Assembly: GCA_016719855.1 (NCBI GenBank)
Contig: JADJYH010000014.1
Span: 45,949-109,948, forward strand
Direction: 5' to 3'
Length of the DNA: 64,000 nucleotides
Source of the DNA: Saprospiraceae bacterium
GTDB taxonomy: Bacteria; Bacteroidota; Bacteroidia; Chitinophagales; Saprospiraceae
Part shown: positions 20,231-54,905 of the stretch, in pieces
How positions within the stretch are numbered: the stretch's first letter is position 1
Layout: each line of letters begins with the position of its first letter
Made by a program: the position numbers and the translations under genes
The notes under the pieces: model-generated
Databases searched by the model: none
The model's input: the letters and a program-made list of their open reading frames with translations, nothing else
Told to the model about the DNA's origin: nothing

Positions 20231-20314
20231 GGTTGATAAGGGTTGATGAGGGTTGATAAGGGTTGATGGGGCCCATTATCAACCCTTATCAACCCTTATC
20301 AACCCTTATCAACC
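20231..20314. repeat. tandem-repeat hairpin (GGGTTGATRA unit x4 per arm) filling the sdhA-sdhB spacer
   Basis: Left arm 20231-20268 ggttgataagggttgatgagggttgataagggttgatg. Right arm 20277-20314 is its reverse complement, with 36 Watson-Crick pairs plus 2 G-T positions. The loop is 8 nt. Confidence 0.95.
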
Positions 20315-22315
20315 TTATTTATAGCTTCTCGCTGCCACTTTGATGTTTTCGTAAATCAGCGGCTCCTTGTTCAGTTCAGGCTCCAAAGAAGTATCCTGCC
20401 AGCCCCAAGCGGCTACGTGCATCATGTTCTCATCATCACGGAGTGCCTCTCCTTCCTCCGTTTGGTACTCCTCCCGGAAGTGGCCACCACAGCTTTCATT
20501 CCGCTGGAGGGCATCAAGGCACATCAGCTCGCCGAGTTCTAGGAAGTCTGCCACACGGGTGGCTTTTTCCAGTTCGGGGTTATACTCATCCATCGAACCG
20601 GGGACGTAGAGGTCGGCATAGAACTCGGCCTTGAGTTCTTGAATCATGCGGCGGGCCTTGGTCAAGCCTTCTGTGTTGCGGCCCATGCCGCAGTAGTCCC
20701 ACATGATTTTGCCAAGGCGGCGGTGGAAACTCTCAGCGGACTGCTTGCCACCGTTGTTGATGAAGCCGCTAAGGCGCTCCCGCACCGCATTTTCAGCTTC
20801 TTCGAACTCAGGCGTGGCGGTGCTGAATTTTGGTGTCCTGATTTCCTTCGACAAAAAGGTGCCGATGGTGTACGGTATCACGAAATAGCCATCGGCCAAG
20901 CCCTGCATCAGCGCCGAGGCGCCGAGGCGGTTGGCACCGTGGTCGCTGAAATTGCACTCACCAGTGGCAAACAGACCGGGGATGTTCGTCTGCAAATTGT
21001 AGTCCACCCAAAGTCCGCCCATCGTGTAGTGGACTGCCGGGTAGATTTTCATCGGATGCGTGTACGGGTCTTCGCCCGTGATTTTTTCGTACATCTCGAA
21101 GAGGTTGCCGTACTTCTCCTCCACGACTGCCTTGCCCATGTCATAAATCTGCTGGGCACTTGGGTTTTCGAGGTTCATCGAGTGCGCCTTGGACTTGCCG
21201 TAACGGTCAATGGCCGCATTGAAGTCGAGGTAAACACCCAATCCCGTTGGAACAATGCCGTGGCCTTTGTCGCACTCGACCTTGGCGGCACGGCTGGCCA
21301 CGTCACGTGGCACGAGATTACCGAAGGCCGGGTAGCGGCGCTCCAGGTAGTAGTCACGGTCGGCTTCGGGTATGTCTTTGCCCTTTTTTTTGCCCTCCCG
21401 AATGGCTTTGGCGTCTTCAATATTCTTGGGCACCCAAACCCGGCCATCGTTGCGCAAGCTCTCGGACATGAGCGTAAGCTTGCTCTGGTAGTCGCCGTAC
21501 TGCGGTATGCAGGTCGGGTGGATCTGGGTGTAGCATGGGTTCGCCATCAATGCGCCACGGCGCACCGCCCGCCAAGCGGCGGTCACGTTGCACATCATGG
21601 CATTGGTGGAGAGATAGAAAACGTTGCCGTAACCACCAGTACCAAGCACCACCGCATGAGCGGCATGGCGTTCCAGTTTGCCAGTCACCAAGTTTCGAGT
21701 GATGATGCCCCTTGCTTTACCGTCAATCAAGACCACGTCGAGCATCTCGTGGCGGTTGTACATGGTCACTTTGCCCAATGAAATCTGGCGGCTGAGTGCT
21801 TGGTAAGCCCCAATGAGAAGCTGTTGCCCAGTCTGGCCACGAGCATAGAAAGTACGCTGCACCTGCACGCCACCAAAGGAGCGGTTGTCCAACATGCCGC
21901 TGTATTCCCGAGCAAAAGGCACGCCCTGCGCCACGCATTGGTCAATGATGTCAGCGCTCACCTCTGCGAGTCGGTGCACGTTGGACTCACGGGCACGGTA
22001 ATCGCCCCCCTTGATGGTGTCGTAAAACAGGCGATAGACGCTGTCGCCGTCGTTCTTGTAGTTCTTGGCGGCGTTGATGCCCCCTTGCGCAGCGATGGAG
22101 TGCGCCCGGCGGGGGCTATCGTGGAAGGTGAAGCATTTCACGTTGTAGCCCAGCTCGCCCAATGCAGCGGCGGCGGCGGCTCCGGCGAGGCCAGAACCCA
22201 CCACGATGACGTCGAGGCGGCGCTTGTTGTCGGGCGAAACGAGCGGCATGCTGCTCTTGTATTTCGTCCATTTTTCGGCGAGGGGGCCGGGAGGTACGTT
22301 ACCGTTTAGTTCCAT
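20315..22315 (-). CDS. sdhA: succinate dehydrogenase/fumarate reductase flavoprotein subunit
   Basis: 666-aa ORF. FAD-binding [24 protein letters not shown] and RLGASALMQ motifs. Confidence 0.95.
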
Positions 22316-22357
22316 ATTTTACAAAGTAAAAAGTAAAAAGGATTAAGTCAAAAGTGG

Positions 22358-23064
22358 TTAAGCGTGGCGCATATAAAACACGAGAGGTATCACCGCAAAT
22401 CCCAGCGGTACCAAGACCGAGTAGGCCGCCCCAACGAACTTGATGATGGGCGTGTATTTTGGGTGATTTAGGCCCATCGTTTGGAAGGCCGACTGGAAGC
22501 CGTGCCAGAGGTGAAAGGCAATCACGACCATGCTAATCACGTAGAAAACCACAAAGCCCAAATTCGTGAAGGTTTCTTCAACCAAGATATAGAGGTTTCT
22601 TACTTCTTTCCGTCAATGTTCACCAACTCAACGCCGTAGCCGATTTCACCGTAGTGCATCATCGCCCAAAACTGAACCAAGTGGATGATGAGGAACACAA
22701 AAATCACCGTTCCGTAAGCCCACATGTACTTGGCCATTACCGGATTGGTTTGCGTAGCACGGGTTTTTGTTACCGCATAACCTTGAGTGCCACGAGCGCC
22801 ACGGTTTTTTACCCAAAGGAAAATGCCCAAGAAGGCATGCAGCAAAATGAAGAAGAAATTCCCTTTGGAAATGAACTGAATCAATGGGTTGTGGCCCATG
22901 AAATCAGCATAGATGTTGAAGGCTTTACCATCGTCGTTGTGGAGCAACTGGAGGTTTCCAGCAAGGTGTACCACCAAAAAAAGGATAAGGAAAATGCCCG
23001 TCAAGGCCATTAAAAGTTTCTTGCCAATGGAAGAAGTGAGAAATCCAAAAAACCAATTGTTCAT
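22358..23064 (-). pseudogene. sdhC: succinate dehydrogenase cytochrome b subunit (b558 family), frameshifted as given
   Basis: ORFs 22600-23118 (start MNNWFFGFLTSSIGKK at 23064) and 22358-22585 (HLWHGFQSAFQTMGLNHPKYT). One base added at the T-run 22607-22609 (AAA on the coding strand) joins ...NIDGKEVRNLYILVEETF. Confidence 0.85.
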
Positions 23065-23128
23065 CTTCAACTTCGTTTTGTTGATGTTTTCAAAACGGCG
23101 GCAGCAACCAAGCTGCAAAAACGCCGGG

Positions 23129-23136
23129 CAAATGTA
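23129..23136 (-). promoter_or_regulatory. Bacteroidota-type -7 promoter box (TACATTTG on the minus strand)
   Basis: Plus-strand CAAATGTA, 65 nt upstream of the sdhC start at 23064. Confidence 0.35.
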
Positions 23137-23213
23137 TCTACTTAAATGGTTTTATCAAAAATGAGTTGCATCACTTTGTAGGAAGGGACTTATTTAGAAC
23201 GGGAAAAATTGTG

Positions 23214-54529: not shown

Positions 54530-54531
54530 AA

Positions 54532-54624
54532 TTAGTTCGACAGTGGGCAATGGGCAGCCAACGCCGTTGTCCCATCCTCTGATTTTTGACTGCGCACTGC
54601 CAAACCGCCGAACTGTCGAACTAA
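54532..54624. repeat. long-range inverted repeat downstream of the permease gene (probable terminator structure)
   Basis: ttagttcgacagt (54532-54544) is the exact reverse complement of actgtcgaactaa (54612-54624). Inner partial pairing involves tgggcaatgggcag. Confidence 0.6.
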
Positions 54625-54629
54625 CTTAT

Positions 54630-54637
54630 TACTTTTG
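54630..54637 (+). promoter_or_regulatory. Bacteroidota-type -7 promoter box (TACTTTTG) for the riboswitch leader
   Basis: Matches TAnnTTTG, immediately upstream of the cobalamin riboswitch. Confidence 0.4.
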
Positions 54638-54639
54638 CA

Positions 54640-54905
54640 CCGCTACGGTGATTTGTGGCCCTGCCGCAAGTCTGAAAAGGGAATCCGGTGAAAATCCGGA
54701 GCAGTCCCCGCTGCTGTAAGTTCCATTGATTTTTTTTGGCAAAAGGCCACTGGATGGGATTGAGATATTGGGTTATTGAGTTATTGGGTTATTCGGGAAG
54801 CTGATTCGCCAGTGAATATCACAATAATTCAATAGCACAATCACCCAATCACAACCGGGAAGGCGCCAAAAAAAGGAACAAGTCAGAAGACCTGCCGTTG
54901 CGTAT
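54640..54905 (+). promoter_or_regulatory. cobalamin (B12) riboswitch with an enlarged internal hairpin
   Basis: Conserved blocks aaaagggaatccggtgaaaatccggagcagtccccgctgctgtaag (54675-54720), gccactgg (54745-54752), cgggaaggc (54856-54864) and the B12 box agtcagaagacctgcc (54881-54896). Located upstream of a TonB-dependent receptor. Confidence 0.88.
54756..54856 (+). repeat. tandem-repeat hairpin inserted in the riboswitch between the GCCACTGG and CGGGAAGGC blocks
   Basis: gggattgagatattgggttattgagttattgggttattc pairs imperfectly with gaatatcacaataattcaatagcacaatcacccaatcac. About 31 of 39 positions pair, counting G-U. Confidence 0.7.

Follow-up and report, generated by a model that had tools for sequence, protein, structure and literature searches.

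The 64,000-nucleotide stretch of Saprospiraceae bacterium DNA analyzed here (contig JADJYH010000014.1; hereafter the window) contains a series of intergenic hairpins in which each arm is built from tandem copies of a short word, and the word changes from one locus to the next. This raises the question of what such hairpins are and how they arise. Intergenic tandem heptamers have been known in bacteria since 1990 as STRRs and have been catalogued as over-represented "long SSRs"; we know of no accepted origin or function for them. A first-pass annotation of the window described one architecture with locus-specific units and proposed no origin. Here we add a link to genes of the PF05635 family and an account of how the arrays evolve by slippage and copying between arms.

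Every hairpin locus named in that annotation is present, at or within a few bases of where it had been placed; five are strong and three are weaker. Predicted RNA duplexes are 20-38 bp long, and the five strong loci have predicted folding energies of −27 to −63 kcal/mol, with z-scores of −7.5 to −12.5 relative to dinucleotide-shuffled sequences. No strand is assigned to the hairpins described below unless one is given. At 20231..20314, four copies of GGGTTGATRA and their four complements flank a 10-nt centre; the 37-nt arms are 97% complementary (−62.9 kcal/mol, z −12.5). This hairpin takes up the whole sdhA-sdhB spacer inside the sdhCAB operon; both genes, sdhA at 20315-22315 and sdhB at 19473-20222, are on the minus strand and were assigned by Pfam. 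The GGGTTGATRA unit occupies this spacer in six congeners and is absent from it in G017 and G007; in G004 a 660-nt insert stands in place of the hairpin. A second GGGTTGATRA hairpin, at 44072..44179, lies in a divergent spacer and has a perfect 21-bp core with 27 nt between the core arms (−55.2 kcal/mol, z −8.4). The hairpin at 23207..23267 carries three TGTGAAC units per arm in a same-strand spacer (−37.4 kcal/mol, z −9.2); the orthologous spacer holds TGTGAAC in G005, TGGTGAY in G018, G012 and G004, and a plain non-repeat hairpin in G017. At 27842..27921, alternating AATTGAA and AATGGAG units fill a convergent spacer (−36.3 kcal/mol, z −7.5), and the first unit contains the TGA stop codon of the plus-strand gene; relatives have GGTGAAC units (G005) or no hairpin (G004) at this site. 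The fifth strong locus, 28347..28409, is built of GATATTGG units between two minus-strand genes (−27.2 kcal/mol, z −7.7) and begins 3 nt past the start codon of 27901-28344. Its spacer contains GTGAGCGG units in G018 and GAAGGATT units in G005.

The weaker loci are decayed or degenerate members. One of them, 54745..54856 on the plus strand, is a decayed hairpin of GTTATTGR units (−39 kcal/mol, z −4.0) in the apical loop of a cobalamin riboswitch (54629-54913; RF00174 match, 108.9 bits), where 96 nt stand at the position of a 5-nt loop in the model. Just ahead of the riboswitch and immediately past a stop codon is 54529..54627, a degenerate member of GTTCGACAGT/GGGCAGT type with 16-nt arms that are 94% complementary and 67 nt apart; its unit resembles the GGCAGTT/CGACAGTT arms that surround PF05635 genes in congeners. 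The weak case at 50017..50093 has GGTATGA-like units and fills a convergent spacer (−24.6 kcal/mol, z −3.65). We also noted a feature that the first-pass annotation had overlooked, a solo G-rich plus-strand array of the AAGTAAAAAGT/AAAAAGG, AAGTAAAAAGG type at 22327..22356, just past the sdhA start codon. This array has no complementary partner, and its unit family is the same as that of the arms around the PF05635 gene at C20:114035.

To determine how general the architecture is, the whole 6.8-Mb genome was scanned under strict rules (stem of at least 16, arm period 5-16, at least two copies, at least 80% self-match). This identified 264 tandem-arm hairpins, far more than expected by chance, and looser rules gave 477; order-3 Markov control genomes gave 0-1. 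Each element consists of n C-poor words of 7-8 nt (rarely 9-10), a unique centre and n complementary words. The unit is 7 nt long at 137 loci and 8 nt at 110, and the words fall into about 40 groups. The 5' arm is richer in G than in C at 254 of the strict loci, richer in C at 4 and balanced at 6, and it contains no C at all at 139; the loose set has 441 G-first against 18 C-first hairpins, and inverted array pairs found by TRF divide 240 to 1 in the same direction. The first-pass annotation had looked to a genome-wide survey to decide its case, and the survey upholds the single architecture with locus-specific units, its enrichment over controls and a G-first polarity far from equality. Also in agreement with the annotation, the terminator-like hairpin at 63226-63263 is C-first. 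Because a palindrome cannot flip its own polarity, the G-first arrangement is inherited by every copy. Local coding constraints are not supported as its cause, as 15 of the 16 hairpins at least 60 nt from both genes are still G-first.

In coding DNA, 80% of the genome, TRF detected 284 arrays of period 7 and 189 of period 8; intergenic DNA has 729 and 547, respectively. About 690 arrays are solo. The repeats therefore have the 5-11-nt tandem unit and the intergenic enrichment of heptameric LSSRs and STRRs. Particular words recur across the genome: the compound AATTGAA+AATGGAG family is present at 29 loci, and the variant GAGGATGC was found again in 8 arms and in another organism. No flanks or loops are common to loci with the same unit; the repeated word alone is shared.

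Placement relative to genes is equally distinctive. The facing stop codon lies a median of 3 nt from the hairpin and the facing start codon 14 nt, although the gene models are crude ORF calls and the start-codon distances are therefore approximate. The residual spacer is 25 nt around tandem-arm hairpins versus 134 nt for plain hairpins. These elements lodge in the tightest gene junctions regardless of gene orientation: occupancy is about 4% for tandem (173/3981), convergent (40/978) and divergent (36/972) spacers, whereas other hairpins prefer convergent spacers (24%). The equal use of all spacer types, together with the sites between sdhA and sdhB and within the cobalamin riboswitch, supports the earlier claim that these are not simply terminators, and the even occupancy leaves no 3'-end preference of the kind expected for Rho-independent terminators. 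A T4 run within 9 nt past the 3' arm occurs at 6% of loci, but this is a weak criterion in this genome and the test is uninformative, since T runs are rare after plain hairpins too (8%). Selection of units for stop codons in all frames was likewise rejected, since 29% of 5' arms cover three frames versus 39% of unit-shuffled arms. The lack of start codons in 91% of 3' arms follows from composition alone.

The history of individual sites was followed in 53 orthologous spacers in four congeners. A hairpin was kept in 42 of these (79%). Among the kept spacers 24 are strictly tandem, all of them G-first, and their unit is the same in 9, related in 3 and different in 12. A hairpin is sometimes exchanged for a REP-like or plain palindrome instead of disappearing. 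Orthologous sites can form a graded series of units, as in AGTTATG, AGTTTTG, AGTTTCG and AGTTACG, and wholly different units can occupy one site at a flank identity of about 95%. Pairs of near-identical contigs reveal unit gain and loss, concerted unit change (four neighbouring units altered together at 97-99% flank identity), compensated variants present in both arms (AATAGAG/CTCTATT) and inverted loops (C2:4051 versus C76:9138; C4:237515 versus C73:12086). Additionally, array ends are mirror-symmetric in phase at 45-50% of loci, where 12-14% is expected. Together these observations demonstrate change at the DNA level by gain and loss of units, spread of variant units along an array, and copying or recombination between the two arms. 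Arm copying or recombination accounts for the mirror-symmetric ends, the compensated variants and the inverted loops, and these modes of change explain how a site persists between species while its unit drifts or is replaced. If G-rich units were added independently to each end of a break, as at telomeres, G-first polarity would follow automatically; this model was rejected, given that the outer and inner ends of both arrays are in mirror phase far above chance. In a search for strain-level relatives, a contig search gave no exact match, a metagenome search with a 147-aa protein gave no match, and an SdhB query gave matches only at 83% amino-acid identity or less. One MAG is 95% identical across the first 449 residues of MutS, yet 72-76% elsewhere.

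A protein candidate comes from genes that lie between arms of the same kind. PF05635 is the "23S rRNA intervening-sequence protein" family, an Avd-like, pentameric four-helix bundle, and intervening sequences (IVS) are inserted at helix 25 or 45 of 23S rRNA. The genome under study has 13 PF05635 matches. At least 10 of 12 PF05635 loci are enclosed by inverted tandem arrays whose G arm comes first and whose units belong to the hairpin vocabulary, as in two divergent genes, one with GGGTTATT arms at C29:32323 and one with AGTTATG arms at C58:31596. The hairpins of the window itself carry no ORF. Across more than 10 genomes, 57 of 59 PF05635-like ORFs have inverted flanking arms, G-first in 51. 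Furthermore, proteins that cluster at 55% identity or more mostly have a common unit across species; the units that track clusters are GGCAGTT (4 species), GGTTTCA, TTGGCTA, AAGTAAAAAGG, AGTTTTG, GGACGGT and GAGGTAT. Of the 264 hairpins, all ORF-less, 191 have a unit at most one mismatch from a cassette arm, a count that includes some double counting. Two congeners, G007 and G015, lack PF05635 genes, and the 140 kb and 60 kb scanned in them, respectively, contained no tandem hairpin. The layout of these cassettes, with arms of like kind and polarity around a PF05635 gene, is that of ORF-bearing 23S rRNA intervening sequences. The genome's own 23S rRNA has no IVS: with lengths of 2886 and 2895 nt, compared with 2925 positions in the model, its two 23S genes carry no insert.

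Based on these results, we consider the hairpins a lineage-wide family of palindromic short tandem repeats, most likely ORF-less relatives of IVS-like PF05635 cassettes, and put the probability of this reading at roughly 0.6. The RNA steps and the seeding of new loci are inferred. Arms co-transcribed with neighbouring genes would form duplexes of 20-40 bp. RNase III may cleave these duplexes as it does IVS stems, or they may serve as REP-like protective hairpins; either would explain why operons and structured RNAs tolerate the elements. Existing arms or cassettes may be the source from which new loci are copied, possibly aided by the PF05635 protein. Several observations weigh against the cassette reading. 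ORF-less hairpins outnumber cassettes by more than 20:1, and the two 23S rRNA genes of this genome are uninterrupted. No insertion with clean boundaries, target duplication or strain-level empty site was seen, and the graded series of units fit drift in situ without copying between loci. Among congeners, G008 with 8 PF05635 genes and G011 with 6 nevertheless showed no tandem hairpin in the 75 kb and 100 kb scanned, respectively, and 60-100 kb from three other PF05635-bearing families likewise contained none. The gene is therefore not sufficient.

The foremost alternative is that the hairpins are autonomous microsatellites with no causal link to PF05635, whose genes would be passengers inserted or tolerated in loops. 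Any small spacer hairpin would grow as words of 7-8 nt, too long for correction by MutS, slip, and intrastrand template switching would then correct the quasi-palindrome. The graded series at orthologous sites fit this account, as does the plain hairpin of G017 where others are tandem, and so do the changes in unit number and the concerted unit changes at 97-99% flank identity, the solo arrays and the PF05635-bearing genomes without sampled hairpins. In other Bacteroidota, moreover, a short ancestral sdhA-sdhB spacer repeatedly gained hairpins of other units. Slippage leaves the near-absolute G-first rule unexplained, however, along with the vocabulary shared among loci, such as AATTGAA+AATGGAG and GAGGATGC. 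It also does not account for wholly different units at one site with similar flanks, for the two congeners that lack both PF05635 and hairpins, or for the co-inheritance of arm unit and protein lineage. We regard it as a possible but distinctly less probable explanation.

Selection by the host for cis-regulatory RNA hairpins (bidirectional terminators, 3'-end stabilizers or translational couplers), with the tandem build as a by-product, appears improbable. In its favour, the predicted stems are very stable, stop codons are located at their 5' base and start codons 5-15 nt past their 3' base, and spacers tend to retain a hairpin, with REP-like or plain replacement sometimes rather than loss; a role in coupling or stability has been proposed for cyanobacterial STRR hairpins (PMC2670836). 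Against this, all spacer orientations are equally used, the sites include the interior of the sdhCAB operon and a riboswitch loop, T runs are scarce (weak evidence, as above), stop codons in the arms are no commoner than after unit shuffling, and G007, G015, G008 and G011 manage without hairpins. A mobile REP/REPIN or MITE family moved by a RAYT or IS200-type Y1 transposase is largely refuted, even though these extragenic palindromes number in the hundreds and the genome has Y1_Tnp genes. The copies have no consensus ends, loops or flanks, the RAYT-like Y1 genes are flanked by different, GC-rich palindromes, no Y1 match was found in the hairpin-rich genome G005, and no duplication was seen at boundaries, as a MITE would leave. 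This bears out the earlier view that the hairpins are not a single-sequence REP or MITE family. Least probable of all are G-quadruplex-forming repeats, as proposed for the GGGAATC arrays of Xanthomonas, where pairs have the same convergent arrangement (PMC4692102). Only the GGGTTGATRA and ATTGGGTT families have the four or more runs of at least three G per array, and most families have no G runs (AGTTATG, TGTGAAC, AATTGAA, GACGATT, TAGACAT, ATTGTTGA).

The relation to IVS-like PF05635 cassettes can be placed beside known systems. ORF-bearing 23S IVS, as in Leptospira and Coxiella burnetii, similarly hold a PF05635 gene within terminal inverted repeats that form a long stem and insert at the apex of a helix already present in the RNA, in the present family the riboswitch loop. 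IVS elements are cut by RNase III within the stem and carry the S23p ORF, and both they and the present family can be regarded as selfish, with a sporadic distribution (PMC4990558); PF05635 itself resembles Avd (PMC10053308). The arms described here differ in being tandem 7-8-nt words, most copies are ORF-less, and they lie between protein genes rather than in rRNA. The STRR heptamers of heterocystous cyanobacteria and heptameric LSSRs are also intergenic tandem 7-nt words with several families per genome (PMC2670836, PMC4692102, PMC4679880), and STRRs can form hairpins within operons, for example hupS-hupL. In contrast, the present family belongs to Bacteroidota (Saprospiraceae-like), the inverted pair is the rule with strict G-first polarity, there are about 40 word groups, and units of 8 nt are almost as frequent as those of 7 nt. 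The units do not match the named STRR1-3 sequences, so the resemblance is one of kind and not of family sequence. To our knowledge, no link between STRRs and PF05635 cassettes has been reported. In Xanthomonas, 70-75 pairs of GGGAATC arrays lie "in convergent orientation", one per strand (Rehm et al. 2015; PMC4692102); the G-first inverted arrangement, intergenic location and length variation between species are shared, but there a single unit is read as a G-quadruplex former, whereas here the units are many and mostly without G runs. REP, BIME and REPIN elements with RAYT are likewise extragenic palindromes by the hundreds, often beside stop codons in operons and plausibly mRNA hairpins; unlike them, the present arms are internally repetitive, with no family consensus or RAYT association.

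A bolder reading, which we put forward only tentatively, is that PF05635 proteins are specificity factors of a self-propagating class of cassettes not recognized before. Each PF05635 lineage would recognize arms made of the 7-8-nt word particular to it and would help these arms to be copied or maintained, as RAYT does with REP elements. In that case, the heptamer arrays of STRR cyanobacteria, Xanthomonas, Beggiatoaceae and Bacteroidota, the ORF-bearing rRNA IVS and the G-first hairpins would be footprints of one class of element.

This genome offers a clean, quantifiable case, with hundreds of loci, a near-absolute and strand-symmetric polarity and sites that outlast their repeated word, and it gives direct signs of arm-to-arm copying and loop inversion. 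Because the elements lie at start and stop codons in core operons and enlarge riboswitch loops, gene calling, operon prediction and RNA-motif searches are affected in these lineages. The association with PF05635 (57 of 59 genes) provides a concrete protein candidate for the heptamer-repeat puzzle, and it ties the repeats to rRNA intervening sequences and, via Avd, to the nucleic-acid-binding partners of reverse transcriptases.

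Tandem-arm hairpins, in which several copies of a short unit are followed by a loop and the complementary copies, form a class distinguished by its architecture, polarity and placement. A purpose-written scan of the assembly that contains the window (C14:45949-109948; 6.83 Mb in 92 contigs, 51% GC, with one gene 95% identical to a Saprospiraceae MAG over its first 449 residues) recovered 1291 hairpins (stem >=16), and in 264 of these the arms were themselves tandem repeats; looser rules raised this number to 477. Order-3 Markov controls, trained on the genome or on intergenic DNA, contained 0-1 such hairpins, confirming the enrichment. 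The stem has a median of 24 bp and the loop of 19 nt. Once compound periods had been halved, 137 loci had 7-nt units and 110 had 8-nt units; units of 9 nt and 10 nt accounted for a further 7 and 8 loci, respectively. The 84 consensus units fell into ~40 groups. The first-pass annotation had described a G-rich, C-poor 5' arm in the window, and this rule holds genome-wide: G exceeds C in the 5' arm (G-first) in 254 of the 264 hairpins, C exceeds G (C-first) in 4 and the two are equal in 6; 139 have no C in this arm. A TRF survey, independent of the hairpin scan, found 729 intergenic arrays at period 7 and 547 at period 8; it also gave 240 G-first inverted pairs versus 1 C-first pair, and ~690 arrays without a partner.

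Direct reading of the window located the proposed succession of tandem units, loop and complementary units at each locus for which it had been claimed, and a repeat finder recovered the arms, with several slipped registers at each locus, as had also been anticipated. Five strong hairpins, at 20231-20314, 23207-23267 (TGTGAAC units), 27842-27921 (AATTGAAAATGGAG units), 28347-28409 (GATATTGG units) and 44072-44179, have predicted RNA folding energies between -27 and -63 kcal/mol, with z scores of -7.5 to -12.5 relative to dinucleotide-shuffled sequences. The hairpin at 54745-54856 is weaker and decayed (RNA fold z -4.0), the degenerate members at 50017-50093 (z -3.65) and 54529-54627 are likewise weak, and a solo array of like kind at 22327-22356 was missing from the earlier list. 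The 20231-20314 hairpin fills the spacer between sdhA and sdhB (genes by Pfam), two hairpins occupy convergent spacers completely, one lies in a divergent region, and the 54745-54856 locus places a 96 nt hairpin insert in a cobalamin riboswitch (RF00174, 108.9 bits) in place of its 5-nt apical loop. With the spacer survey, these assignments uphold the sites first reported, namely convergent gene ends, an operon, a divergent region and a riboswitch. No tandem-arm hairpin was found at 12417-16037. The window also holds an unbroken A run of ~1.1 kb at 31271-32396 (GC 0, AT skew 1.0), which looks more like an artefact of assembly or masking than a biological feature.

The contention that these hairpins are not simply terminators is borne out by their distribution among spacers, as defined by our own crude ORF-heuristic gene calls, on which the distances below also rest. 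Tandem-arm hairpins occur in ~4% of spacers of every type (173/3981 tandem, 40/978 convergent, 36/972 divergent), whereas plain hairpins, the remainder of the scan, favour convergent spacers (24%). The median distance to a facing stop codon is 3 nt, the stop frequently lying within the first unit, and that to a facing start codon is 14 nt (ATG in 143 of 168 such starts). The residual spacer has a median of 25 nt beside tandem-arm hairpins versus 134 nt beside plain ones. A T4 run follows the 3' arm in 6% of tandem-arm hairpins; this test is uninformative in this genome, since plain hairpins reach only 8%.

A single-sequence REP or MITE family had been ruled out in the window, and the genome agrees, since loci with the same unit have neither flanks nor loops in common. 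Compound unit patterns are nonetheless found repeatedly: AATTGAA alternates with AATGGAG at 29 loci, and the double-substituted variant GAGGATGC occurs amid GAGGATTT units in 8 arms, plus a metagenome contig of another organism. Separately, RAYT-like Y1 transposase genes (C29:17953-18056, C9:160823-161045) are flanked by long GC-rich palindromes that are unrelated to tandem-arm hairpins, and these are probably the true REP/RAYT pairs of the genome.

Across congeners, the sites persist while their units turn over. In orthologous spacers of the window loci, compared at ~80% flank identity, the hairpin is kept and the unit is frequently another. The 28347 spacer has GATATTGG in this genome, GTGAGCGG in G018 and GAAGGATT in G005; the 27842 spacer has AATTGAAAATGGAG, GGTGAAC in G005 and no hairpin in G004; the 23207 spacer has TGTGAAC, TGGTGAY in three congeners and a plain hairpin in G017; and six species retain the unit of the 20231 spacer, GGTTGATAA. 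The G004 sdhA-sdhB spacer (L088, C126) has, in place of the hairpin, an insert of 660 nt that shows coding potential. Among 80 metagenome contigs with sdhB relatives this spacer is mostly 8-50 nt, and several lineages have independently gained G-first tandem hairpins with other units there. For 24 tight loci drawn at random and four congeners, 42 of the 53 evaluable spacers contained a hairpin. All 24 strictly tandem congener hairpins were G-first, with the same unit in 9, a related one in 3 and a different one in 12. Graded unit series were seen (AGTTATG, AGTTTTG, AGTTTCG, AGTTACG). Some congener spacers in the sample have a REP-like palindrome instead; this separate family (core ACGGACTGGCAGTCCGT, with BIME-like tandem arrays) was found at G014:C3:117683-118369 (L232) and, for sampled loci 12 and 21, in the corresponding spacers of G004 (L230, L256).

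Homologous contig pairs within the assembly (91-99% flank identity), reflecting either strain heterogeneity or recent duplication, demonstrate copying from arm to arm and inversion of the loop. Single units are gained or lost, four neighbouring units are altered together, and a variant unit appears in both arms, compensating. In two pairs (C2:4051-4121 and C76:9138-9215; C4:237515-237565 and C73:12086-12130) the loop of one copy is the exact reverse complement of the other, as expected from flip-flop recombination between arms. One site has entirely different units (AATGATG vs GGATTGC) at ~95% flank identity. The outer and inner array ends are in mirror phase at 45-50% of loci versus 12-14% expected. 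Together, these changes and the mirror-phase ends show slippage plus copying or recombination between arms, and argue against two independent repeat additions at a break. An extremely lopsided locus, L238 (G014:C11:137486-138140), has ~26 AAGGATTG-complement units in its C-rich arm and one or two units in its G-rich arm.

Tandem-arm hairpins are associated with cassettes in which inverted tandem arrays enclose a PF05635 gene ('23S rRNA intervening-sequence protein', S23p). This genome has 13 PF05635 hits. Inverted tandem arrays enclose at least 10 of the 12 loci, and their left-hand arm is the G-rich one. The arm unit differs from cassette to cassette and comes from the vocabulary of the gene-less hairpins: ATTGGCT, GGGGAATT, ATTGTTGA, AAGTAAAAAGG, GGGTTATT, AGTTATG, GACGATT and GAGGTAT, with GGTTGATAA surrounding a pseudogene and AATTGAAAATGGAG on one side only. 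Of the 264 gene-less hairpins, 191 (with some double counting) have a unit that differs from that of a cassette arm at no more than one position. The same build occurs in other families of the order. Across more than 10 genomes, inverted arms flank 57 of the 59 PF05635-like ORFs compared, and in 51 of these cases the arms are G-first. Within protein clusters (>=55% identity), compared regardless of synteny, the arm unit is mostly common to the species concerned: there are five cases of the GGCAGTT type, from four species, three each of GGTTTCA, TTGGCTA and AAGTAAAAAGG, and two each of AGTTTTG and GGACGGT, and a sub-group of 142-144 aa has GAGGTAT. The unit is discordant in one or two clusters. 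In L293 (G028:C1:2623200-2624700), a PF05635 gene lies between two direct, not inverted, arrays of 42-44 CAATGGG units.

Relatives were examined as sampled stretches. Close same-genus genomes have a similar hairpin density with partly different units, and most hairpin-rich congeners have 7-16 PF05635 hits (3 in G016). Sampled stretches of G007 (140 kb) and G015 (60 kb) yielded no tandem-arm hairpins, and these two congeners had no PF05635 hit either. Nor were such hairpins found in 75 kb of G008, 100 kb of G011 or 240 kb from three other families, all of which have the gene; thus the PF05635 gene is insufficient for gene-less hairpins. In sampled genomes without tandem-arm hairpins, hairpin polarity is balanced or C-first.

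MutS deals with loops up to about 4 nt, and the preference for 7-8-nt units may represent escape from it, which leaves the rarity of 5-6-nt units unexplained. Local coding constraint is not supported as a cause of the G-first polarity, and selection for stop codons was rejected. Descent from elements that were already G-first would fit, since turning a palindrome around leaves its polarity unchanged.

Several known systems resemble parts of this picture. Cyanobacterial STRR heptamers form hairpins of unknown function in operon spacers (PMC2670836), TAACTGA heptamers immediately precede start codons in Beggiatoaceae, cyanobacteria and certain Bacteroidetes (PMC4679880), and 23S rRNA IVS elements with an ORF have terminal inverted repeats, an RNase III cut within the stem and an S23p gene (PMC4990558). 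PF05635 has been likened to Avd, a DGR accessory protein (PMC10053308). Xanthomonas genomes each have 70-75 convergent pairs of GGGAATC arrays (PMC4692102), with the same polarity as the hairpins described here, and this likeness hints at a mechanistic cause of the G-first rule. Our literature search, incomplete in coverage and no proof of absence, found no paper that unites these threads or states the polarity rule. We propose that the hairpins would be co-transcribed with adjoining genes, that the transcribed arms may form either substrates for RNase III or protective hairpins, and that new loci may be seeded from existing arms, perhaps with a role for the PF05635 protein.
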